A stretch of 8,992 nucleotides of DNA from a virus (taxonomy: Duplodnaviria > Heunggongvirae > Uroviricota > Caudoviricetes), in IMG/VR virus record IMGVR_UViG_2695420728_000019, positions 1 to 8,992 of that record. One strand, written 5' to 3'. Position 1 is the stretch's first letter; each line of letters opens with the position of its first letter. The notes beneath the pieces are model-generated. The model had not been told where the DNA came from. It did no database searches and saw only the letters and a program-made list of their open reading frames with translations. This document shows, one piece after another, positions 1 to 8,992 of this stretch. The position numbers and the translations under genes are program-made.

Positions 1-534
1 CCAGCGGCGATTATCCGCACGCGGCATTTTTTCGGGGTGCTGCTCGTACAGGGAGCGGCGGGCCAGCTCCACGCCGGAATCAGGGTAAGCCGGTACGGAT
101 GTGACGGTAATTTCGTACAGTTCCGCAACCAGCACGGTGCGCACGCATGGATCTGTTGTGGTATCCCATACATCCTTACGGGAACGAAAGCCAAAGCTCA
201 TGCCGGATATATCACCACGCTTAACCAGTTCGATAACGTCCCGCCCTGTACTGGTATCCGGTGGCGTCAGTTCAAAGCGTAACCCTGTGTCGTCCTCTTC
301 CAGTTTCAGCGATCCGGAACGGGTGCGCCCCAGTAACATGCTGTGGTCATGCTCATACAGGCCGCGAACGTCATTACCCGCCGCAAGCCACTCAGTAAAC
401 GCCCCCCGCTGAAATTTTTCGTAAAACTCACCCCATAGCAGATCAGAAAGGTTATTCCAGCGAACAACGTAACCCGTCAGCGTGTTGCTGGCGCTGGTGG
501 TTATTTCCGATGACCGGATTTCCATACTCTTCAT
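1..534 (-). CDS. HK97-family prohead (head maturation) protease, N-terminal 178 aa; 3' end truncated by the window edge
   Basis: Minus-strand frame is open from ATG (revcomp of 532-534) to base 1, verified codon by codon; it is absent from the ORF track only because no stop lies in the window. Translation MKSMEIRSSEITTSASNTLTGYVVRWNNLSDLLWGEFYEKFQRGAFTEWLAAGNDVRGLYEHDHSMLLGRTRSGSLKLEEDDTGLRFELTPPDTSTGRDVIELVKRGDISGMSFGFRSRKDVWD... has the His-containing YEHDH block and the G.S.GF serine block typical of Peptidase S78/U35. GGGTGA lies about 9 nt upstream of the ATG. Confidence 0.75.
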   Translation of the reverse strand, partial: MKSMEIRSSEITTSASNTLTGYVVRWNNLSDLLWGEFYEKFQRGAFTEWLAAGNDVRGLYEHDHSMLLGRTRSGSLKLEEDDTGLRFELTPPDTSTGRDVIELVKRGDISGMSFGFRSRKDVWDTTTDPCVRTVLVAELYEITVTSVPAYPDSGVELARRSLYEQHPEKMPRADNRRW

Positions 535-559
535 AATTTTTTTCACCCATAAAACACTA

Positions 560-579
560 AAGGGGCTTTTTAGCCCCTT
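560..579 (-). terminator. Stem-loop between capsid and protease genes (8-bp stem AAGGGGCT/AGCCCCTT, TTTT loop); possible attenuator or weak bidirectional terminator
   Basis: Perfect inverted repeat 560-567/572-579, 11 nt after the capsid stop codon (590-592). On the minus strand it is followed by TAGTGTTTTATG, which is only partly U-rich. Confidence 0.35.
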
Positions 580-589
580 CTGTATGCTG

Positions 590-1747
590 TTAATCGTCGT
601 CCTGTGGCAGTTCCAGAATCTTGATCGCGTTCGAATCCACCACGCCACCGCCTAAATATTTCTGCGTGAAAATTTTGATAAAGCCCGGCTCTGTCAGGTT
701 GTCCGGTCTGGTGCGCACGCCCGTTTCATGATCAACGATGTAATAACCGCGTTTGAAGTCACCCAGGGCGATAACGTTATCCGGCATAAATTCCAGATAC
801 TCCACCGGAAGCCCCAGCAACGTATCAGGATCACCCGCCTGTAAACGGTCGCGCCAGATGTAATCGCCGTTCGCGTTCTTCACCTTCTGAAGTTTTGCCG
901 CCGTCGTGGAGTTAACCACCCAGACCGCGTTTTTGCGGTATTTTTTACGTAATGCAAATTTCAGGTCGATCAGCGGGTCCGCAGATGTCCACGCCAGAGA
1001 TTCGGAAGGTTTAATTACCTGCAACGTACCAAAATCACGCTCTTTGTCGTTCTTCTCTGCACGGGGTACGGATAAAAAACCTTTTGCTTTTTTGTCACCG
1101 TCGCCCACAACCAGATCGCTTTCTTCGGTTTCCGTGAAGGTGTCGCCAATCTCACCCGTCAGCCATGAAAGGATGTCCACATCGGAAAAATCCACGATTT
1201 CCTGTGTGGTGCGCGGGTACGCATAGACCGGATACAGCTTAATGCTCACCTCGTTAATCTGCGGGGTGCTGGTCTGTTCGCGTGTCTTACCCTCTTCACC
1301 GTGGTTAACGGTCGCACCGCCAGCGGAAACAAGCTGCTTAAACTCGTTGCTGCTGATTTTCTTCACGGTACAGATGCGGCGCATGGTGGATTCATCCGTC
1401 AGCATTCGCATGATTTCGGTGTTCAGTTCGGGGATAACGGTATAACCACCATCAGCGGGAACGCCTGTACTTAATGCGCGGGTTTCACCTGTCAGAATGT
1501 AGTTGCGTAGTTCTGCGGGGTCAGTGGTCTGGCTGCTTTTACCTGGCTTGCTGCGCTCTTCGTCTGCAATGGCTTCAAGGCGGGAAATGTCTTTATCGAG
1601 GGATTCAGCTTTAGCGCGTAATTCGTCAAATTTTGCGCCCTCAGCATCGTTAAGACTGCGGTTTTCTTTTTCCGCGTTCTCCAGCATGTCGCGCATCTGA
1701 TTTTTAATGGCGGTTTTCTGCTGGCGTAATTCGATTATTCTCGGCAT
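590..1747 (-). CDS. Major capsid protein, HK97 fold (385 aa from ATG at 1745-1747)
   Basis: N-terminal coiled-coil delta-domain-like segment (ELRQQKTAIKNQMRDMLENAEKENRSLNDAEGAKFDELRAKAESLDKDISRLEA), followed by blocks typical of the Phage_capsid family (GGYTVIPELNTEIMRMLTDESTMRRI; LVVGDGDKKAKGFL; AVWVVNSTTAAKL; GDPDTLLGLPVEYLEF; IALGDFKRGYYIVDHETGVRTRPD). The track ORF begins at a GTG at 1795; the ATG at 1747 has AGGA 8 nt upstream and is preferred. Confidence 0.85.
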   Translation of the reverse strand: MPRIIELRQQKTAIKNQMRDMLENAEKENRSLNDAEGAKFDELRAKAESLDKDISRLEAIADEERSKPGKSSQTTDPAELRNYILTGETRALSTGVPADGGYTVIPELNTEIMRMLTDESTMRRICTVKKISSNEFKQLVSAGGATVNHGEEGKTREQTSTPQINEVSIKLYPVYAYPRTTQEIVDFSDVDILSWLTGEIGDTFTETEESDLVVGDGDKKAKGFLSVPRAEKNDKERDFGTLQVIKPSESLAWTSADPLIDLKFALRKKYRKNAVWVVNSTTAAKLQKVKNANGDYIWRDRLQAGDPDTLLGLPVEYLEFMPDNVIALGDFKRGYYIVDHETGVRTRPDNLTEPGFIKIFTQKYLGGGVVDSNAIKILELPQDDD

Positions 1748-1783
1748 AAAAAAAGTCCTGGGGTTAAGTAAGGAACTCCAGGA
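1748..1783 (-). promoter_or_regulatory. Stable hairpin (11-bp stem with one G-T wobble, 8-nt loop) followed on the minus strand by T6 and then directly by the capsid ATG; terminator-like or translational control structure
   Basis: Arms 1754-1764 and 1773-1783 (GTCCTGG.../...CCAGGAC core), with 1748-1753 reading TTTTTT on the minus strand. The AGGA Shine-Dalgarno of the capsid gene lies inside the 3' arm. Confidence 0.35.
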
Positions 1784-1836
1784 CGCGGCAAACACTCAAC
1801 CGTTTTTCATAAGGAAATCAGTAATCGCACCGATCG

Positions 1837-1886
1837 TTTTCCCGCCTGGTAATGAATATTGGCGAGCACATTAACAGGCGGGAAAA
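1837..1886. promoter_or_regulatory. Perfect 12-bp inverted repeat TTTTCCCGCCTG / CAGGCGGGAAAA separated by 26 bp, in the intergenic region upstream of the capsid operon
   Basis: Arms at 1837-1848 and 1875-1886 read directly; the spacer is AT-rich (GTAATGAATATTGGCGAGCACATTAA). Lies between the PerC-like terminator and the capsid gene. Confidence 0.35.
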
Positions 1887-2006
1887 TGGCCCCAGCGTCC
1901 TGGCACCACGGGCGAGAATAATCATGATTCAGGTCGGGTAAAATATGCCGTTCCGGTCAGCGAGCAACGTGGAACAACCACGAACAAATAATTTACAAAA
2001 CATGAC

Positions 2007-2027
2007 AAAAAGCCGGATTGCTCCGGC
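2007..2027 (-). terminator. Rho-independent terminator downstream of the PerC-like gene
   Basis: Minus strand reads GCCGGA-GCAA-TCCGGC followed by TTTTTGTCATGTTTTG. Stem 2012-2017/2022-2027, U-tract from 2007-2011; 8 nt after the stop codon at 2035-2037. Confidence 0.55.
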
Positions 2028-2034
2028 TGTGTGA

Positions 2035-2307
2035 TTATCTGTCCTGGTAATTTCGCCATATTTCATCGCTTACACCATCTATACCCATTTCAGCATAAGT
2101 GCGATCTACTGCCTTTCTCAGGTCTCCGAAGTTATCCGGCGGCTCCGGTGGCTTCTGTGCCTTCCTGGAACATTCCAGCCGTCGCATCGTAACCTGATGC
2201 CGTTCCTTGTCTGTCTCCACCAGCAGCATGACTTCACCCCATCGCGCCGCCGCCCTCCGGTAAAAGCCTTTCGCCTCGAGTTCTTCCGCTATGCGGTCAT
2301 GTACCAT
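2035..2307 (-). CDS. PerC-family-like small transcriptional regulator (90 aa from ATG at 2305-2307)
   Basis: MVHDRIAEELEAKGFYRRAAARWGEVM...PPEPP...AEMGIDG matches my recollection of the PerC-family signature (IAE.LEAKG.WRRAA.RW). Strong RBS GAGGGGGTGG 5 nt upstream of this ATG; the longer track ORF (to 2427) would overlap ssb by over 100 nt and is rejected. Confidence 0.55.
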   Translation of the reverse strand: MVHDRIAEELEAKGFYRRAAARWGEVMLLVETDKERHQVTMRRLECSRKAQKPPEPPDNFGDLRKAVDRTYAEMGIDGVSDEIWRNYQDR

Positions 2308-2317
2308 CGCCACCCCC

Positions 2318-2728
2318 TCAGAACGGAATACCGTCACCGTAAGGGTCATCGCCTCCCGCTGGTGGCTGATTACCCTGTGTGCCTGTGGTTTTGCGTCTGT
2401 TCCCGCCAGGACGTGCCGCACGGGCACTGATTACGCTGTCTGCAATAACCTGATAACCCTGCCGCGTTTCCCCGTTCTGTCCGGTCCACTGGCTGACCTG
2501 CATCGTGCCGGATACGCTGGCAACGTCGCCTTTTTGGTGTTTAGCCAGGAAGTCGGCCTGCTTACCAAATGCGATGACCGATAGCCATAACGTAGCCTGC
2601 CCATCCTGCGCCTGACTACATGGCAACGATACCGCCATACGTGCCAGCGTCATTGGTGTGCCCTTGCTGGTCTGTTTTACCTGCGGGTCGTCCACCAGCC
2701 GCCCGTAAGCTGCTATCTGTGCTGTCAT
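2318..2728 (-). CDS. ssb: Single-stranded DNA-binding protein (136 aa)
   Basis: OB-fold blocks align with E. coli SSB (IAAYGRLVDDPQVK ~ VILVGNLGQDPEVR; WLSVIAFGKQADFLAKHQKGDVASVSGTMQVSQWTGQNGETR ~ [43 protein letters not shown]). Gly/Pro-rich linker and acidic C-terminal tail DDPYGDGIPF (compare ...DFDDDIPF). RBS GAGGTGG upstream; ATGA overlap with the upstream ORF. Confidence 0.8.
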   Translation of the reverse strand: MTAQIAAYGRLVDDPQVKQTSKGTPMTLARMAVSLPCSQAQDGQATLWLSVIAFGKQADFLAKHQKGDVASVSGTMQVSQWTGQNGETRQGYQVIADSVISARAARPGGNRRKTTGTQGNQPPAGGDDPYGDGIPF

Positions 2729-2976
2729 GATTCCACCTCTCCGGTTTTAACGTTGATGGTTGTCACCTGTTCAGCTTCCGCAATCTCCCGCTCTGTCAGC
2801 GTGGCAAAATTTGCCGCCGTCGTGGTCATGAATGCGCTTATCAGTTCGGGATGTGCTTTCGCGTATCCTTCCCCCGCGTGGCGGTCTATCGTTCTGATTG
2901 CCACCTTTAAGGCGTGCTCTGTCATGTCTAACGCTTTATATTTTGGCTCTGTTCTGTCTCTGTGTTTTTGAGTCAT
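2725..2976 (-). CDS. Hypothetical small protein (83 aa from ATG at 2974-2976), translationally coupled to ssb
   Basis: ATG preceded by GAGGTGG. The longer track ORF (to 3108) would read through the iteron array and is rejected. No recognisable family. Stop overlaps the ssb start (ATGA). Confidence 0.4.
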   Translation of the reverse strand: MTQKHRDRTEPKYKALDMTEHALKVAIRTIDRHAGEGYAKAHPELISAFMTTTAANFATLTEREIAEAEQVTTINVKTGEVES

Positions 2977-2978
2977 TT

Positions 2979-3181
2979 GCCCACCTCTACCCACTTTTTT
3001 CGCCCACTTTTTACGTTTTCCCACTTCGTCCAACGTGGGAAATTTGGGATTTATATCATCTTGTTTCATAGGTATTTTTTTAGTGCCCACTTTTTGGGAT
3101 ATATACACGTGGGAAAGTGGGTAATTTTGTTAAAATTCCGTTAAATCGCCCACCTTTCCCACTTTTAATGCCCACTTTTTA
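2979..3181. repeat. Iteron-type replication origin: about 11 copies of a CCCAC core (8 direct, 3 inverted) flanking an AT-rich stretch
   Basis: Direct CCCAC at 2980, 2990, 3003, 3020, 3086, 3149, 3158, 3171; longer form (G)CCCACTTTTT at 2990, 3003, 3086, 3171. Inverted GTGGG at 3035, 3109, 3117. AT-rich candidate unwinding element 3048-3083. Sits immediately 3' of the replication gene; the last iteron overlaps its stop codon. Confidence 0.6.
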
Positions 3182-4579
3182 CAGTGGTCCTACATCATCA
3201 CCGTCAATGTAGATCACGTCGTCTTTTTCCAGTTTGGCTAACCATCGTTTAAGGTGTTTTGTGTCATACCCCAGCTTTTTCATATCGTCACGTAACAGCG
3301 GGATCGTGCACTTGTCGCCGTGCTGTGTGCGTGAACGTATGCATCCCCATAGCGCGGTATGGTTTTCCGTCTTGTTCCCTGCCTCCTCGATGCGCTCCAG
3401 TTCAACAGGAGGGCGCGGATCATCCACCACCACCAGCGACGTGATTAATTCACCGTCAGCGTCGGTAAAAAGCTCCACCACGCGTAAGTCATATGCGGCT
3501 TCTTTGAGTTCCTCCGCGTCCTTCATTTTGGTGCATGAGATAACCAGCGCTTCGCTTCCTGCGTCCTCCCTGCGTATCCGGTATTCAGCATCCAGCGAAG
3601 CACGAAATGCACTGGAACCGCGCGCGCCTTTCGTCTCATCCTTGCCGGAATGGTGAACCACCAGCACCGTGGCCCCTGTGCGTCGTTTCAGTTCGTCACA
3701 ACCACGGATAAACGCCCCCATATCACGGGAATCATTTTCATCATTCCCACCAAAGCAACGCGCCAGCGTATCCAGAATAATCATGCGTACAGGTTTACCC
3801 GTTTCCCGCTCCACCTGACGGGCAGCGATAACCATTTCATCAACATCAAGCGGGGCAGCCGGAAAGATGGGGCGGTTTACCAGATACAGATTTTTCACCT
3901 GCTCATCGTGCACAACCTCCCAGGCTTTTACACGACGCGGAACACCTATACCGCCTTCACCAACCACATAGAGAACCGCACCATGTGCAACCCTGCGGCC
4001 TCCCCACTGGCGACCAGTGGCAACATGGCACGCCCACGATCCGGCAAGGAATGATTTATAGGACCCGCTAGCCCCGTATATGCTGCATAGCGATACCGCC
4101 GGAATAATCCCCTTAACCACGTAATCCAGTTGCGTGTCGTATCCGGTAGATCCAACGCTCATCGGTAGCGTGGTTTTTCGCTGGTGGTTTTTTTCTTCCG
4201 CCGGCTCTTTCCCGCGCACCCGTTCCAGGTATTCGCGCCAGTTCTCCCGCATATGGCTGTGCATCCCTTCGGGGTAATAATTCGCATCAGTTACACCCGC
4301 CGCCGCCAGCTTGTGCGCAATGGCATTAATATTTGATGGCCTGATGTGGCCTGCCTTGTACAGCCGGACACAATAGCGCCCCTCGTCGATGATTCTCAGG
4401 TCTGCCAGTTCATCCAGTTGATCATCAGCCAGCACAACGGGAGGCACATTATCGCCAGCCAGTCGCCCGTCCTGTTCCTGCCACTGTTTCGCATGTGCCC
4501 AGGCATCACTACCCGCAAAAATAATGACTTCGGTCATCTTGTCGTAAGGCTGTTTTTTTAAGTTCGGTGCGCTTTTCAT
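3179..4579 (-). CDS. Replication initiator/helicase, AAA_25 (RepA-like, RecA-fold) ATPase with ~190-aa N-terminal domain of unknown fold (466 aa)
   Basis: P-loop region SIYGASGSYKSFLAGSWACHVATGRQWGGRRVAHGAVLYVVGEG, Walker B-like MIILDTLARCFGG, and VLVVHHSGKD block typical of RepA/AAA_25 helicases. ATG with AGGGG RBS; ATGA overlap with the upstream ORF. Confidence 0.8.
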   Translation of the reverse strand: MKSAPNLKKQPYDKMTEVIIFAGSDAWAHAKQWQEQDGRLAGDNVPPVVLADDQLDELADLRIIDEGRYCVRLYKAGHIRPSNINAIAHKLAAAGVTDANYYPEGMHSHMRENWREYLERVRGKEPAEEKNHQRKTTLPMSVGSTGYDTQLDYVVKGIIPAVSLCSIYGASGSYKSFLAGSWACHVATGRQWGGRRVAHGAVLYVVGEGGIGVPRRVKAWEVVHDEQVKNLYLVNRPIFPAAPLDVDEMVIAARQVERETGKPVRMIILDTLARCFGGNDENDSRDMGAFIRGCDELKRRTGATVLVVHHSGKDETKGARGSSAFRASLDAEYRIRREDAGSEALVISCTKMKDAEELKEAAYDLRVVELFTDADGELITSLVVVDDPRPPVELERIEEAGNKTENHTALWGCIRSRTQHGDKCTIPLLRDDMKKLGYDTKHLKRWLAKLEKDDVIYIDGDDVGPL

Positions 4580-4875
4580 TTCTTGCCCCTGAATCCGTTA
4601 ATCATGGTTTTCAGCTTCTGGATGTTTGCCCGTGCCCTGGCGTTGCTGGTGGGCACGTTATGCGGCGCGGTCTGTACCAGAGAAAAATCACGCCGGAACT
4701 GATAAACAGGCATCACGCAATCATATTCGTAACCTTCACGGCGGTAAGTTACGCACCGTCCCGCCACGCCCTTAATCATTACCGTGCCGCCGTACTGGTC
4801 GCGGTAAATATCACCGCGCGTAAATTTAGGGTGAGTGTTGCCACTGGCAGTTAAGCCAGAATATTTAAGTTTCAT
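4576..4875 (-). CDS. Hypothetical protein (99 aa), translationally coupled to the replication gene
   Basis: ATG start, stop overlaps the rep ATG (ATGA). Basic, mixed composition unlike the antisense artefacts; no family recognised. Confidence 0.5.
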   Translation of the reverse strand: MKLKYSGLTASGNTHPKFTRGDIYRDQYGGTVMIKGVAGRCVTYRREGYEYDCVMPVYQFRRDFSLVQTAPHNVPTSNARARANIQKLKTMINGFRGKK

Positions 4876-4880
4876 TATTT

Positions 4881-5114
4881 TTATTCTCCGGTGTGCTGTT
4901 CTTTATATCTGTCGTGCAATAGATCTATTTCTTGCAGTTCCATTATTACAGGCTCAAGAAGCGTTATTAATGCCGTGGCAATTCTTAATTTTTGTTTGTC
5001 GCGTTCATTGTCGCCAAGTGTTTCAAGCCATATGCGCAATATTTCGTACATACCTTCAGCGTAAGCAAGGGCACTAAATGCGCGGTCTATTGTTTCAAGA
5101 TAAATATCACGCAT
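4881..5114 (-). CDS. Hypothetical small protein (77 aa, predicted helical)
   Basis: ATG start; 5-nt gap to the downstream ORF and 1-nt gap to the upstream ORF; same strand and packing as the rest of the operon. Confidence 0.45.
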   Translation of the reverse strand: MRDIYLETIDRAFSALAYAEGMYEILRIWLETLGDNERDKQKLRIATALITLLEPVIMELQEIDLLHDRYKEQHTGE

Positions 5115-5115
5115 A

Positions 5116-5337
5116 TTAATCCCCGTCCGTTGTTTTTCTTAAAACAGCTTCTGTCACGAAATCAGCATAGTTAGCGGCAATATCAAGAATATTTAGCCCT
5201 GTACCTCTGTGCTCATCAGTGCAAAGAAAGAAAAAAGCCACCCGCATAATTTCAGATATTGACGAAAGCGCATCAGCCGCATCATCAGGAACGCCGGAAA
5301 ATTCTTGTTTCAGGGAATTAAAACGATCATCACGCAT
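5116..5337 (-). CDS. Hypothetical small protein (73 aa)
   Basis: ATG at 5335-5337 preceded by GGGGAGGGGGGG RBS-like tract; tightly packed in the operon. Confidence 0.45.
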   Translation of the reverse strand: MRDDRFNSLKQEFSGVPDDAADALSSISEIMRVAFFFLCTDEHRGTGLNILDIAANYADFVTEAVLRKTTDGD

Positions 5338-5555
5338 AACCCCCCCTCCCCATTTTCACAATCAGCAACAAGAATATTTTTAGCGTCATTCAGCGACCGC
5401 GTGGCGGTGTATCGGATACATTCCAGGGCGAACAATGTGTATTCTTCCCGTTCTTCCTTTTGTGCAAGCCCTGCTGTGCATTCAATATCAATAAGCGCAT
5501 GCATCAGCGTAGTGAGCGCGGCGGCGGCTGCGTCCGGCGTGGTTTTATTGTGCAT
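5310..5555 (-). CDS. Hypothetical small protein (81 aa from ATG at 5553-5555)
   Basis: Track ORF starts at a TTG at 5585; the internal ATG at 5555 has AGGGGGA 8 nt upstream. Overlaps neighbours by 11 and 28 nt; start uncertain. Confidence 0.35.
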   Translation of the reverse strand: MHNKTTPDAAAAALTTLMHALIDIECTAGLAQKEEREEYTLFALECIRYTATRSLNDAKNILVADCENGEGGLCVMIVLIP

Positions 5556-5718
5556 AGGTTTCCCCCTGACGAATACGGGCGACAAAAATCAGATGTGCGT
5601 GCGGCAGCTGGGCGCGGGCTTCGCGTTCTGTTGCTGCCGTGACGGTAAAGAGTGAGGTTTGTTTTTCCTGGCACTGCATAAAGCGCCAGACAAAATAAGG
5701 GCGTGCGGATACAGCCAT
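5545..5718 (-). CDS. Icd-like (host cell division inhibitor-like / Ash-related) small protein, paralog 2 (57-aa core; the frame is open upstream to an ATG at 6012 giving an alternative 155-aa product)
   Basis: YFVWRFMQCQEKQTSLFTVTAATEREARAQLPHAHLIFVARIRQG fits the W.F....I.V.A.SE.EAR......F.AR signature I recall for Icd-like proteins of P4-like elements. ATG at 5716-5718 has GGGAG upstream. Confidence 0.5.
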   Translation of the reverse strand: MAVSARPYFVWRFMQCQEKQTSLFTVTAATEREARAQLPHAHLIFVARIRQGETYAQ

Positions 5719-6004
5719 GTGAAAGGCTCCCAGATGAATTTTAAGGAGTCTCGCTACTACGCTGTCAAACATGGTGGCGAGACGTAACAGGGTTGACAGA
5801 CTGGTCATCTGGAAACCAGCGAGCACAAAGGCTCCCCCGTTACGCCCCGCCATAATGCGGGTATGGGTAGGTTTACGGACACAAAAAAACCGCTTATCGG
5901 ATGTGGGCGGCTGTCCGCCAGATGTATTCAGGCTGTCAAACCCGGTCGCCATGTGGGCGACGGGGGAAGCATACAGCCCCGTGATAATTTTTTGCAAGCG
6001 GTTT

Positions 6005-6208
6005 TTACGCATGATGTGACCCCTGACGAATACGGGCAGCGAATACCATCACGCAGCCAGCCGGAGATTGCTGGCGTGCTTCCTGTTCGCTGGTGGCCTC
6101 AATGGTAATCACGCGCGGTTGTGCCGTGCTCAGGGCGATAAAACGCCAGATGTATTTATTCAGGTTGTACGAGTCCCGCCCTTGCGGGTGTATGGTATGA
6201 TTTCTCAT
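6005..6208 (-). CDS. Icd-like small protein, paralog 1 (67 aa from ATG at 6206-6208)
   Basis: YIWRFIALSTAQPRVITIEATSEQEARQQSPAGCVMVFAARIRQG, same signature as paralog 2. First gene of the leftward operon, downstream of a candidate promoter at 6316-6344. Confidence 0.5.
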   Translation of the reverse strand: MRNHTIHPQGRDSYNLNKYIWRFIALSTAQPRVITIEATSEQEARQQSPAGCVMVFAARIRQGSHHA

Positions 6209-6306
6209 AGCTGCCTCGATACTCTCGTTATCGTTGGTGGTTAGACGCCCCGTATGTGTTTCCGGCACTGCGGGGCGTTGCTCTTTGTATTTCAACAATC
6301 CTTTCG

Positions 6307-6339
6307 GTGTGTTTCATGTTATGAGCGCATGAAACACAC
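6307..6339. promoter_or_regulatory. Operator-like perfect palindrome GTGTGTTTCATG-N9-CATGAAACACAC overlapping a minus-strand promoter (-35 TTGACG 6339-6344, 17-bp spacer, -10 TAACAT 6316-6321)
   Basis: Arms 6307-6318 and 6328-6339 are exact reverse complements. A third copy of the half-site (TGAAACACAC, 6375-6384) lies at the -10/+1 region of the divergent plus-strand promoter. Confidence 0.5.
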
Positions 6340-6346
6340 GTCAAGG

Positions 6347-6384
6347 CTTTTTGTATTTCTTTTTTTGTGTATACTGAAACACAC
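6347..6384 (+). promoter_or_regulatory. Candidate promoter for the plus-strand gene at 6406: TG-adjacent -10 TATACT (6370-6375) with a weak T-rich -35; operator half-site at 6375-6384
   Basis: TGTATACT read directly; AGGAG RBS at 6393-6397, 8 nt before the ATG at 6406. The -35 is poor, so the assignment is tentative. Confidence 0.4.
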
Positions 6385-6405
6385 CGATGATTAGGAGTTT
6401 CAGAA

Positions 6406-6711
6406 ATGGCAACGGCTAACAAAAACGCAAAATCACAACTGACAACTGTCAGAGTCCCACTAGATGTTATGCAAGGGATGGAATCCGTTAAGCTGGACGG
6501 CGAAAGCAATGCCGGATTTATCGTAACCGCCATGCGCGGAGAAATAGCCCGCCGCCAAGCAGAAGGCAGCGGAGAAAATCCCCTTGTGTCGTCACTGGAT
6601 GCCCTGGCTAAGGTCGAACAAATCGGCATCAAAGCAGCGGAAGAAATCGGGCAGCTTGTCACCGTTGCACGCGAAGAACTCCAGCGTCGCAAGACCAAAG
6701 AACCAGAGTAA
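6406..6711 (+). CDS. Small regulator candidate with ribbon-helix-helix-like N-terminus (101 aa); divergent from the leftward operon
   Basis: Strong RBS AGGAG. N-terminal TTVRVPLDVMQGMESVKLDGESNAGFIVTAMRGEIARRQ has the strand-helix-loop-helix pattern of Arc/MetJ/CopG-type domains (inferred by eye); C-terminal half is helical and charged. Only plus-strand gene in the island core. Confidence 0.6.
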   Translation: MATANKNAKSQLTTVRVPLDVMQGMESVKLDGESNAGFIVTAMRGEIARRQAEGSGENPLVSSLDALAKVEQIGIKAAEEIGQLVTVAREELQRRKTKEPE

Positions 6712-6768
6712 TCACCATCAGCGCCGTGGTGTGAGGTATTACGGCGCATTGCTATGCAGGACAACACA

Positions 6769-6942
6769 ATGACCGATAAAGAATTGACCAAAACATTATC
6801 ACCGGCACGGAAAAGACGGCGCAGAAAGATAGAGCATGAATCAGAAAGATTCGCGCCATGTGCTTTTGCCCTTGAGCAATTCCTTAAAGAGTACAGGGAA
6901 AAGCGCTCATTGCAGGCATGGCAACGAACTGAACCAGACTGA
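6769..6942 (+). CDS. Possible small basic protein (57 aa, contains KRRRRK); low confidence
   Basis: ATG at 6769 with AGGA 8 nt upstream; lies between the RHH-like gene and the terminator at 7038. No family recognised; could be non-coding. Confidence 0.25.
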   Translation: MTDKELTKTLSPARKRRRRKIEHESERFAPCAFALEQFLKEYREKRSLQAWQRTEPD

Positions 6943-7037
6943 TAGCATTGCCCACCAGCCTGATAGCGGCTATCATCCCCGTGCTTATGTTTGGGATCAC
7001 ATACACATAAGGCGCAGCGGGTTATCTGTTCAGAAAG

Positions 7038-7065
7038 GCGGCTCCATTTCGGGGCCGCTTTTTTT
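7038..7065 (+). terminator. Rho-independent terminator (GCGGCTCC-ATTTC-GGGGCCGC then T7), probably bidirectional between the convergent plus-strand unit and alpA
   Basis: Stem 7038-7045/7051-7058 with one G-U wobble, T-tract 7059-7065. An A-tract precedes it, so the minus-strand transcript also gets hairpin plus U-run. Confidence 0.6.
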
Positions 7066-7211
7066 ATGCCTGAAAAACCCCAATTTTGTGGTTTTCCAGT
7101 CTCACCAGGGCGAACGAATCCCCGCCCACGTTCTGGCGTATATTCAATCTTCATGGTTATAGCTCTGTGTTCAGATGATTGATGTGTGGCGGCTGCGTGC
7201 CGCCAGCGTGA

Positions 7212-7400
7212 TTAATGAACTGCCTTGCAGCTATCCTTCCAGGCCAGAACCTCGGATAAAGACCAGCCAACGGAACGACCGCCAAGTTTACGACGTGATG
7301 GGAATTGTCCGGCCTTTTCCAGGCGGTAGCGACATGTACGGCTAAGGCCGGTTAGTTTTTCGCATTCTTTTTCACGTATAAACCGATCAGTGCTTAACAC
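7212..7400 (-). CDS. alpA: AlpA-family transcriptional regulator / excisionase-like protein (62 aa)
   Basis: LTGLSRTCRYRLEKAGQFPSRRKLGGRSVGWSLSEVLAWK matches the AlpA (Phage_AlpA) helix-turn-helix signature. Start is a GTG at 7398-7400 with AAGGGGG RBS 5 nt upstream. Lies immediately downstream of int. Confidence 0.8.
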   Translation of the reverse strand: MLSTDRFIREKECEKLTGLSRTCRYRLEKAGQFPSRRKLGGRSVGWSLSEVLAWKDSCKAVH

Positions 7401-7559
7401 TATTGCCCCCTTTCGTTTCTTAAAGAGTTATTTCGTGTTCTATTGCGTTGGGATGTGTCTGATTGTGTCAGGATGATTCAGAGTTGGCAAATGTTGAGGT
7501 CGTATGGTTTACAGAAACAGGAATAATCAGGATAAAATCATTTAAATTCATGTTAATAT

Positions 7560-7588
7560 AAAGGCATAAAATATTGTTTCATGCCTTT
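7560..7588 (-). terminator. AU-rich hairpin (AAAGGCAT-N13-ATGCCTTT) about 190 bp downstream of int; weak candidate int terminator
   Basis: 8-bp inverted repeat 7560-7567/7581-7588 in a very AT-rich intergenic region; flanking runs of A/T on both sides. Confidence 0.25.
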
Positions 7589-7741
7589 TTTCTCGCTATT
7601 TAAAGAGTGATTCGCTAGTGTATAAAAAACCAGTAACACATTAAAAATCAGCTACTTATAAATCCGTACACTTTTTCGCCTCTTGTTCGTAGTTGTTCCG
7701 CATTGTTGCTCATTGTTGCATGTTGTATCTGTTCGCATATC

Positions 7742-7757
7742 CAGTATGCGCATACTG
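7742..7757. promoter_or_regulatory. Perfect 16-bp palindrome CAGTATGCGCATACTG just 3' of the int stop, adjacent to phased TTGTT repeats (7683-7725)
   Basis: Sequence equals its own reverse complement. No flanking T-tract in terminator geometry, so more likely a protein-binding site. Confidence 0.35.
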
Positions 7758-7774
7758 AAAAAACACGAAAAAAA

Positions 7775-8992
7775 TTATTTTCTTCTGGCTACTGGTAGCG
7801 TGGTTACGTTTTCATGTGTTCCCGCCAGTATCCCTAACCGCTCCGTCCACATATCCAGCGCATTGCGTTTAGCATCCAGATAACGGGAATGATTATAAAC
7901 TCGCTGCATTCCTGGCATCTGATGACCTGTAAGCTGCTCCACGACATGCGGATCAACGCCTAAATCGTTCAGCATGGTTGTAAAGGTGCGCCGGATGTCA
8001 TGCAGTGACCAGTGAGGATGATTAAGCCTCCTGTGCGCTAATCTTCCATACTGCGATACGCTGGCCTCCTGTTTCGCTTCCCCCAGCAATAAGCCCGTGT
8101 GCCTGTTCTGCTCCACCAGCTGCGTGACGAACGGCAGGATCGCTTCCGGTATGGGCCGGAATATTGCGACCTTCGTTTTGCTGTGCTCCTTCGGAACGGT
8201 CCATAGCATTTCCGTAAAATCCCACTCCCCGATCTCCGATAGCCTCAGTTCTACCGTCCTGGCTCCGAAGACAATCAGGAGGCGGATTAACGCGACGTAG
8301 TAAGGGGAAAATATTTTTTTGTCCAGTGCCTGCAATAATTCGCCAAGTTCTTTGTTACTTAAGACACGTTCGCTTATATCCGGTTTTTTCCCAACGTCCG
8401 CCACGTTCAGATCGTCCAGAACGTTGCTGATTGCATAGCGCCGCCTACGGCAAAACTTAAGCGCCTGTTTGCACGCCTGTAGCACGAATCCGGCAGTAAC
8501 AGGCGTTCGCTTTGCCACCTGGTCAAAACAGGCCAGCCAGTGCCGTAGCTCGCATTTATCCAGCGGCATAGCACCAATCTGCTGTATTACGTGATTATTA
8601 AGTCGCCTTTTCAGGGCGATATAATCCACGCGGTTTTCCTTTACGTAATACTCAAGCCAGTAGGTGAGCGCATCGCCAACCGTTACGGGCTTTAACGCTT
8701 CCTGTACGGTGTAATTCATCTCATGACGTGGATTTTTCCCCTCAGCCAGCCATGTGCGACACTGTGCGGCTTTTTCCCTGGCTACTTTCAGGCTCAGATC
8801 AGGATAACTTCCCAGCTTAATGCGTTCGGGTCGTGTCTCCCTTCCCGTTCCGGCCCTGTATGTGAAATACCAGGTCAATTTCCCTGATGTTAAATATTTC
8901 ACGCTCAGGTTTCCGCCATCACTATAAAACGTGTTTTTCTCCGCTGGCTTACCATGAAGTTTCCTTAGCAAGGTATCGCTCAGTTTGTTCAT
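7775..8992 (-). CDS. int: Tyrosine-type site-specific integrase, P4-like (405 aa)
   Basis: N-terminal arm-binding-type domain (LSVKYLTSGKLTWYFTYRAGTGRETRPERIKLGSY) and C-terminal catalytic blocks (HDIRRTF, GHQMPGMQRVYNHSRY with the catalytic Tyr). The ATG is the last three bases of the window (8990-8992). Confidence 0.9.
   Translation of the reverse strand: MNKLSDTLLRKLHGKPAEKNTFYSDGGNLSVKYLTSGKLTWYFTYRAGTGRETRPERIKLGSYPDLSLKVAREKAAQCRTWLAEGKNPRHEMNYTVQEALKPVTVGDALTYWLEYYVKENRVDYIALKRRLNNHVIQQIGAMPLDKCELRHWLACFDQVAKRTPVTAGFVLQACKQALKFCRRRRYAISNVLDDLNVADVGKKPDISERVLSNKELGELLQALDKKIFSPYYVALIRLLIVFGARTVELRLSEIGEWDFTEMLWTVPKEHSKTKVAIFRPIPEAILPFVTQLVEQNRHTGLLLGEAKQEASVSQYGRLAHRRLNHPHWSLHDIRRTFTTMLNDLGVDPHVVEQLTGHQMPGMQRVYNHSRYLDAKRNALDMWTERLGILAGTHENVTTLPVARRK

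Follow-up and report, generated by a model that had tools for sequence, protein, structure and literature searches.

We analysed a stretch of 8,992 nucleotides (positions 1 to 8,992 of the IMG/VR virus record IMGVR_UViG_2695420728_000019; hereafter, the window) that carries the integration, replication and capsid genes of an element resembling phage-inducible chromosomal islands of the capsid-forming type (cf-PICIs). Searches with Pfam hidden Markov models confirmed the genes named in an original prediction made from these letters, all of them on the minus strand: a P4-type tyrosine integrase at 7775-8992 (Arm-DNA-bind_3, 6.4e-18; Phage_integrase, 1.3e-16), alpA at 7212-7400 (Phage_AlpA, 5.4e-17), a 466-residue replicative helicase/initiator of the RepA family at 3179-4579 (AAA_25, 3.5e-44), a single-stranded DNA-binding protein (SSB) at 2318-2728 (4.2e-17), an HK97-fold major capsid protein of 385 residues at 590-1747 (Phage_capsid, 2.6e-61) and an HK97-family prohead serine protease at 1-534 (Peptidase_S78, 1.7e-47). 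RepA also matched phrog_2850 (2.4e-262) and further primase/helicase families of PHROGs. The protease reading frame is cut by the left window edge about 23 nt short of its stop codon, leaving some seven codons outside, and the GTG start of the integrase, as annotated in the Escherichia coli contig L002, lies 12 nt beyond the window edge. The iterons of the original prediction are real, since 9 of the 13 window-wide matches to AAAGTGGG (at most one mismatch) cluster at 2990-3178, directly after the repA stop codon. The open reading frame (ORF) list and Pfam revealed no tail, lysis or large terminase subunit (TerL) gene within the window, as had been stated. The description of the genes as one co-oriented block holds for most of them and fails for two plus-strand genes, a YlcI/YnfO-family gene (ylcI, 6406-6711) and a 62-codon frame (orf62, 6754-6942).

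EcCIEDL933, the type member of the cf-PICIs, was located in the chromosome of E. coli O157:H7 EDL933 and then compared with the element to which the window belongs. The two capsid proteins are identical at 385 of 385 residues, and the window's capsid aligns with the solved structure 9gyi_B over residues 1-385 (E 6.9e-257). SSB and AlpA are likewise 100% identical to their EcCIEDL933 counterparts, and on the basis of these three proteins the element is assigned to the known cf-PICI family. The protease is 97.8% identical and the integrase 91% identical in amino acid sequence. At the DNA level, the packaging module shows 96.9% identity over 6,938 nt, and the int-alpA block 92%. The packaging module is also syntenic in Shigella, Citrobacter, Erwinia and Gilliamella. 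Next to 9gyi, the nearest solved structures by sequence are the capsids of the Rhodobacter capsulatus gene transfer agent, 6tb9 and 6tba (E ~3e-46).

The remainder of the element was read from two E. coli contigs, L002 (CP010238.1) and L005, which align to the whole window at 99.96% identity, with four mismatches and no gaps; given this full-length match, both are taken as the window's own genomic context. Comparison with the empty K-12 site delimits an element of 14,836 bp within the tqsA coding sequence, bounded by 9-bp direct repeats with the core ATAACAGCA (L002 5392-5400 and 20237-20245). From the window edges, the element continues for about 5.66 kb on the left, up to attR, and for 188 bp on the right, up to attL. 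Host sequence is intact on both flanks, and host genes start directly past the attachment (att) repeats. An extension beyond both edges had been anticipated, as had an att site on the right. The tRNA or tmRNA target expected there was abandoned, because the att site lies in tqsA and a tRNA/tmRNA scan found no tRNA in the window. To the left of the protease gene, L002 and L005 encode the packaging genes that had been foreseen on that side, namely a portal, a head closure protein (Phage_HCP), a connector (Phage_connect_1), an HNH protein, the small terminase subunit (TerS, Terminase_4) and TerL, recognised by TerL ATPase and nuclease domains (TerL_ATPase/nuclease); a 93-aa ORF follows, and then host genes. 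No tail, holin or lysis gene was found in the 14,836 bp between the att sites, according to the gene inventories of L002 and L001. The proposal that everything except the capsid is borrowed from a helper phage does not stand, the element encoding its own TerL and HNH proteins; a helper would provide only induction, tails and lysis, the latter because the element itself has no lysis genes.

Related elements share this organisation. In the RefSeq relative H1, also inserted in tqsA, 95% of the window is matched at 97% identity, and the gene order annotated by PGAP is the same. At least 80% of the window is covered in 60 of 5,426 E. coli genomes, and the RepA protein was found on many E. coli contigs. 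An equivalent organisation of 14-15 kb occurs at three bacterial attachment sites (attB): tqsA, the relA-barA region (L006 and L004) and the roxA-phoQ region (EDL933). The presence of relatives at different attB sites indicates that the unit moved as a whole. When the full element was held against the published definition of cf-PICIs (Alqurainy et al. 2022/2023) and the SatelliteFinder model (PMC10085698), all eleven core components were found and the forbidden ones were absent, as judged by Pfam-type domain matches. Its gene content comprises an integrase with att sites, alpA next to int, a replicase with an origin, capsid and protease genes and packaging genes, with no tail or lysis genes, in agreement with the gene-content definition and its size range of ~10-15 kb. 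We conclude that the window very probably covers ~60% of a 14.8-kb cf-PICI, namely the part nearest the integrase, and that this cf-PICI belongs to the EcCIEDL933 lineage and is inserted in E. coli tqsA. The satellite family is already known, and sequence comparison identifies the element as a close mosaic relative of its type member. The original prediction of a cf-PICI-like satellite is thereby upheld, both by the full element in L002 and L005 and by the identity to EcCIEDL933.

The gene interrupted by the insertion, tqsA, encodes the autoinducer-2 exporter. Integration splits its coding sequence, and RefSeq marks both halves in H1 as pseudogene fragments, so that carriers presumably lack TqsA. 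Further repeats lie close to the element ends. A 23-nt repeat, CGGTGTAGTCACTGGTGTAGTCA, is present near both, and was considered and then dropped as the att site: it is conserved among elements with differing attB sites, which places it inside the element. Close inside each end (L002 5528-5550 and 20140-20162; L009 1283-1303 and 16511-16531), GGTGTAGTCA/GGTGTAGTTA occurs as a tandem repeat, likewise conserved across elements with differing attB. These end-proximal repeats, CGGTGTAGTCACTGGTGTAGTCA and GGTGTAGTCA/GGTGTAGTTA, are probably arm-type binding sites of the integrase rather than the att core.

What is known of the prototype suggests how such an island would be mobilised. EcCIEDL933 measures 15.4 kb and carries int, alpA, rep, capsid, protease, portal, connector, HNH, TerS and TerL genes but no tail genes; its induction requires alpA together with helper phage HK106 or HK446, and is abolished by an alpA mutation (10.1101/2022.09.08.507074). 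The small capsids are of its own making and package no DNA but its own, so that tails are all it takes from the phage (10.1101/2022.09.08.507074; 10.1101/2025.02.11.637232). By analogy, a helper phage would switch on alpA, upon which the island would excise, replicate, build small capsids and package itself through HNH-TerS-TerL.

Could the element be a relic of a cf-PICI, fixed in the chromosome, no longer mobilisable and with a decaying regulatory cassette? The variant is known here from its sequence, PGAP marks an Icd-like pseudogene in the corresponding zone of H1, and in the comparison with L004 the stretch from alpA to ylcI contains indels and lacks codon periodicity. By contrast, the core ORFs have the same lengths as those of the functional prototype, the att repeats are intact, and near-identical copies are present in many genomes, as counted above. 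Moreover, a compensatory change in an antisense RNA and the co-variation of operators with a candidate regulator, both described below, indicate selection rather than decay. Of the alternatives weighed, the relic survives best, and it is itself quite improbable.

Less credible still is a reading in which the window shows just the early region and the head genes of an HK97-like prophage, be it ordinary or defective. The capsid, protease, portal, HNH, TerS and TerL genes all have phage homologues, and TerL is contiguous with the block, an arrangement that the original prediction had listed as a sign of a prophage. TerL is indeed present, yet tail and lysis genes are absent inside the att repeats; as all cf-PICIs carry TerL, its position beside the block is not evidence of a prophage, and it is the absence of tail, holin and endolysin genes that decides. 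Further, a 9-bp att repeat 14.8 kb from the integrase marks the end of the element, and the host sequence is intact on either flank; the 14-15 kb unit recurs at three attB sites; and the capsid is identical to that of an experimentally demonstrated satellite. Among full-size phage records (37-41 kb), capsid identity reaches 40% at most. The four closest records labelled as phages share 58-65% capsid identity; three of them measure 3.8-16.5 kb, two of these being island-sized (15.3 and 16.5 kb), and the fourth is a 106.5-kb Klebsiella record with 64% identity. A classical PICI or P4-like satellite that remodels helper capsids is an alternative of practically negligible probability, the int-alpA-replicase arm, the C4/CI-type RNA and the Icd-like genes being common to both groups, but the element having its own capsid, protease, portal, connectors and TerL, with no Sid, Psu, Delta or alpha-type primase in the Pfam, NCBIfam and PHROG results for the ORFs of the window or of L002, and EcCIEDL933 transfer depending on the island capsid gene and not on that of the helper (10.1101/2022.09.08.507074). 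The classical PICI class is ruled out formally as well, as portal, head-tail connector and adaptor, which SatelliteFinder forbids in that class, are all found in the full element.

Two points temper the assignment to an EcCIEDL933-lineage cf-PICI. What is said of induction, capsid formation and helper identity comes by analogy from the prototype, and the replication cassette and the zone downstream of alpA are unlike those of EcCIEDL933, so that helper specificity and regulation may differ.

The replication cassette occupies the centre of the window. Ahead of repA, a DUF4222 gene (4576-4875, minus strand; Pfam, 2.1e-23) overlaps the repA start with its 3' end (ATGA); a DUF4222 gene precedes the replicase in all related loci. 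The origin of replication, placed at 2990-3178, consists of two sets of AAAGTGGG iterons flanking an AT-rich spacer, in agreement with the PICI origin layout reported previously (PMC6092414), and the RepA-type helicase would act on this origin, directly downstream of its own gene. Then follow, on the minus strand, a conserved 83-aa ORF at 2725-2976 (phrog_1231, 6.5e-52; 89% identical to the EcCIEDL933 ORF), ssb, and at 2035-2307 an accessory gene for a PerC-family regulator (Pfam PerC, 1.3e-44; 98.9% identical to the EcCIEDL933 copy). An intrinsic terminator at 2005-2028 (minus strand), with a 7-bp GC-rich stem followed by UUUUUG, closes this series. Most of the replicase together with the iterons (window 2987-4225) is unshared with EcCIEDL933. 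Only the N-terminal 122 residues of RepA are related to the DUF927 replicase of that element (67% amino acid identity), and the DUF4222 proteins are 78% identical. The unshared segment and the relatedness limited to the first 122 residues argue that replicase body and origin were swapped as one cognate cassette. A second segment unshared with EcCIEDL933, window 4890-6714, corresponds to the zone downstream of alpA.

This second zone contains the start of the early operon. A sigma-70-like promoter, TTGACG-17-TAACAT, was found by promoter scan at 6316-6344 on the minus strand (9 of 12 consensus matches). Downstream of it lie two Icd-like genes, and after the second of these (icd2) the order is three small ORFs (81, 73 and 77 aa; 4881-5555, minus strand), DUF4222, repA, origin, ssb, perC and the terminator at 2028-2005. 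The small ORFs belong to PHROG families of unknown function, and no match was obtained for them in Pfam or NCBIfam; PADLOC detected no defence system among ten small and accessory proteins. The early/replication operon would start at the promoter at 6344-6316 and end at the terminator after perC.

Between the Icd-like genes lies a C4 antisense RNA of the P1/P7 immI and P4 CI type (5770-5857, minus strand), which scores 72.6 bits with Rfam RF01695 (gathering score 45; E 4.5e-14) and is predicted to fold at -47 kcal/mol. Its surroundings on the minus strand reproduce the known target sites. The a1/b1 targets at 5925-5974 align with the annotated P1 sites (46.8 bits with Rfam c4-a1b1, gathering score 46.7). 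Between them and C4, direct reading of the sequence shows an intrinsic terminator (stem plus U7) at 5883-5912, at the 3' end of an IsrK-like match that scores under the gathering threshold (Rfam isrK, 35.2 bits). The a2 (5761-5770) and b2 (5726-5738) targets, together spanning 5726-5770, align with P1 a2/b2, and b2 covers the GGAG ribosome-binding site of icd2. The b'-b2 duplex is predicted at -14.5 kcal/mol, a value reached by 0 of 500 shuffles. Icd-like ORF 1 (67 aa, 6005-6208) and icd2 (57 aa, 5545-5718, with its ATG at 5718) both match NCBIfam phage_ICD_like (1.4e-19 and 2.9e-15, respectively), and the icd2 stop codon overlaps the ATG of the next ORF.

From a1 to a2, the segment is 78% identical in nucleotide sequence to the c4 locus of phage P1. 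Compared base by base with the annotated immI region of P1, the sites a', a1 and a2 are the same as in the phage (CUGUCAA / UUGACAG), and the b' loop, b1 and b2 are all switched, from CACUAAC / GUUAGUG in P1 to CCAGAUG / CAUCUGG in the window. Such compensation at three sites speaks for a functional antisense system that has a specificity of its own, and the switched targets predict an immunity specificity separate from that of P1. The immunity RNAs of P1 immI and P4 CI provide the analogy for a C4 RNA that blocks expression of a replication operon. By this analogy, C4 would pair with a2/b2 and mask the icd2 ribosome-binding site, blocking the translationally coupled genes downstream. Neither Ant nor KilA nor Bro was matched in the ORFs downstream of icd2 by Pfam, NCBIfam or PHROG searches, the operon leading instead to DUF4222 and repA. 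C4 is absent from EcCIEDL933, L003 and L007. A segment of ~470 bp comprising a1/b1, C4, a2/b2 and icd2 (~5550-6020) is present in the window and in L004 and missing from both L001 and L003. The 3' ends of the two icd genes form a 29-nt direct repeat around it, 83% identical (5563-5591 and 6020-6048), which suggests that the segment was gained or lost through recombination between the icd copies. An immunity RNA of the C4 type is not new in kind in a Gram-negative PICI, as the Rfam C4 and isrK models match several of them (PMC10111431).

Upstream of the early promoter, the plus-strand unit starts with ylcI, which encodes a 101-aa protein of the YlcI/YnfO family (NCBIfam, 1.6e-17; phrog_6522, 1.1e-63). 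In frame with it lies orf62, which shows 98% amino acid identity on the equivalent strand of EcCIEDL933 and for which Pfam and PADLOC found no family match. The unit converges on alpA and ends at an intrinsic terminator at 7033-7065 on the plus strand (13-bp stem plus U7, ~-21 kcal/mol; 0 of 200 shuffles were as good). Its divergent control region (6304-6387) contains three copies of TGAAACACAC, at 6304-6316, 6328-6340 and 6375-6387: the first just downstream of the -10 element of the early promoter, the second abutting its -35 element and the third just downstream of the plus-strand ylcI -10 element TATACT. Within the 100 nt upstream of ylcI the repeat counts as a 10-mer present three times, which none of 1000 shuffles matched.

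The repeats were compared across eight loci from Escherichia, Klebsiella and Photorhabdus (the window, L003, L004, L007 and L024-L027). In 8 of 8, the gene has the same position, with alpA on one side and, on the other, the small ORFs ahead of DUF4222 and of a replicase whose type varies. The operator-like repeats stand at constant positions (~-99, -76 and -30) in the different alleles, and the repeated word differs: TGTCAGCCAC in L004, GAATCACA in L007 and TGAATACCA in L027, each in three copies, and CTTACA in four copies in L003. In an alignment of 42 YlcI homologues, the variable residues fall at positions 2-15, just ahead of an invariant R-x-P-H-D. If these residues read the operator, alleles sharing the N-terminal strand should share the operator word, and this prediction agreed in two independent pairs. 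In the first pair, a Photorhabdus allele shares the strand QLTTVRVP with the window, and GAAACACAC recurs there three times at matching positions; in the second, a Klebsiella allele shares QSLTARIP with L003 and contains three copies of CTTACAC. This co-variation of operator and N-terminal strand supports DNA binding by the YlcI-like protein.

The alignment-based AlphaFold2 (AF2) model of the protein (pLDDT 81.9) shows an extended segment followed by helices at 19-28 and 35-54; the single-sequence model was poor (pLDDT 61). Foldseek of the AF2 model against the PDB and a Pfam search of the protein gave no match, and phmmer against the PDB returned nothing useful. From the model, the YlcI-like protein may be a ribbon-helix-helix (RHH) protein at its N terminus and a candidate repressor of the early promoter. 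A profile search weakly matched its conserved C-terminal half (residues 45-86) to the helix-hairpin-helix domain of Hef, a nuclease (E 0.0035), and this half may constitute a second DNA-binding or dimerisation motif. Our search of the literature found no paper on YlcI/YnfO function. The absence of a phage repressor/Cro pair, which the original prediction had noted, holds for classical helix-turn-helix CI and Cro proteins only, as a candidate RHH regulator with operators and a C4 RNA are present; that the element lacks any repressor is probably incorrect.

The YlcI-like protein, with its predicted RHH fold, would bind its three cognate operators and repress its own promoter as well as the early one. 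This repression could be lifted by a helper factor, or by transcription driven by alpA that crosses ylcI in the antisense direction. We propose that a sizeable subset of Gram-negative PICIs and cf-PICIs, the present element among them, is governed by such a two-layer switch, composed of a YlcI-type RHH repressor, whose variable N-terminal strand would recognise an operator particular to its allele, and, in some alleles, a C4 RNA; together they would set satellite immunity groups and gate the replication operon; this proposal is tentative, and we place its chance of being right slightly below even. The existence of a master repressor in Gram-negative PICIs has been called 'unclear' (PMC6092414). 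Three results weigh against the switch: the L003 repeat, taken alone, is insignificant (153 of 1000 shuffles, and 96 of 500 on a rerun, do as well), the a'-a2 duplex of C4 is no better than shuffles (77 of 500), and the promoter calls are consensus matches.

Opposite ylcI and orf62, the minus strand contains a 308-aa ORF (6228-7154), which was considered as a gene and rejected as a likely antisense artefact. It has no family match in Pfam, NCBIfam or PHROGs and lies in the frame that shares wobble positions with ylcI and orf62; codon position 2 is the least variable one in the ylcI frame and not in its own. It is also interrupted by indels in L004 and spans the plus-strand terminator at 7033-7065. 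PGAP annotates its EDL933 counterpart as a hypothetical protein, which counts against an artefact. From these sequence features, we consider that it is probably not a gene. It may correspond to the 'gene downstream of alpA' of published maps, which is described as variable and of unknown function (He et al., 10.1101/2025.02.11.637232).

Around alpA, a hairpin without a U-run (7187-7205, minus strand; -13.9 kcal/mol, z = -3.3) lies directly 3' of the stop codon. The minus-strand motif ACTCTTTAA occurs three times, at 7413-7432 and 7593-7612 in the AT-rich alpA promoter region and, downstream of the gene, at 6880-6892; AlpA, integration host factor (IHF) or a helper factor could bind there. An 18-nt inverted repeat with 94% complementarity lies at 1837-1886, upstream of the capsid gene in a region conserved with EcCIEDL933. 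It does not resemble a terminator, as on both strands a U-run precedes the stem and an A-run follows it, and may serve to regulate the packaging operon.

The capsid comparisons also brought up island-sized records deposited as phages: LR881103.1 (16.5 kb, 65% capsid amino acid identity), OR544139.1 (15.3 kb, 58%) and PQ793804.1 (16.5 kb, 34%). At least LR881103.1 and OR544139.1 are probably cf-PICIs recovered from induced lysates, and not phages.

The assignment of the element to the satellites adds nothing new in itself: cf-PICIs are established and abundant, and this capsid is identical to that of the type member, whose structure is solved. Its practical value lies in correct annotation, the region being no defective prophage and the insertion disrupting tqsA. 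For the silencing of Gram-negative PICIs, and for the question why a given helper induces a given island, the regulatory cassette offers a modest though testable lead, in which a candidate repressor and its operators co-vary across alleles and genera and are combined with an antisense RNA of switched specificity.

How does the element compare with known systems? With P4-like satellites it shares only the integrase/AlpA type and the CI/C4-type RNA, and as in P4 a C4/CI-regulated operon leads to the replication gene. The likeness to the immI region of P1 and P7 is closer in detail: the order a1, b1, C4, a2, b2, icd is the same, b2 overlaps the ribosome-binding site of icd, and translation of icd is coupled to that of the next gene. 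Unlike P1 immI, the window has no Ant or antirepressor gene after icd, has an extra Icd-like ORF upstream, and has an IsrK-like terminator that splits a1/b1 from C4. The arrangement of the candidate repressor recalls Stl/Rpr, the master repressors of the Gram-positive PICIs known as Staphylococcus aureus pathogenicity islands (PMC6092414), with a regulator divergent from the early/replication operon and the control region between them. However, there is no sequence relationship, the fold predicted here is RHH, and the regulator points towards int/alpA, converging on alpA. The window also fits the layout of integration, dynamic, replication and late zones described for Gram-negative PICIs (PMC10111431). 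That work stresses Bro-N network proteins, of which none was found here, and makes no mention of a YlcI/YnfO gene or its operators.

The closest comparison is with EcCIEDL933 itself. The two elements differ in attB, which is the roxA-phoQ intergenic region for EcCIEDL933 and the tqsA coding sequence here, and in the replicase, EcCIEDL933 encoding a DUF927 protein of 710 aa in place of the 466-aa RepA/AAA_25 protein with AAAGTGGG iterons. EcCIEDL933 has no YlcI/YnfO gene with operators (no tblastn match) and no C4 RNA, and it contains an additional small ORF between perC and the capsid gene. By contrast, the order of the remaining genes is the same in both elements: int, alpA, small ORFs, DUF4222, replicase, 83-aa ORF, SSB and PerC, then capsid, protease, portal, head closure, connector, HNH, TerS, TerL and the 93-aa ORF, with the block encoding the 83-aa ORF, SSB and PerC 96% identical in DNA sequence.

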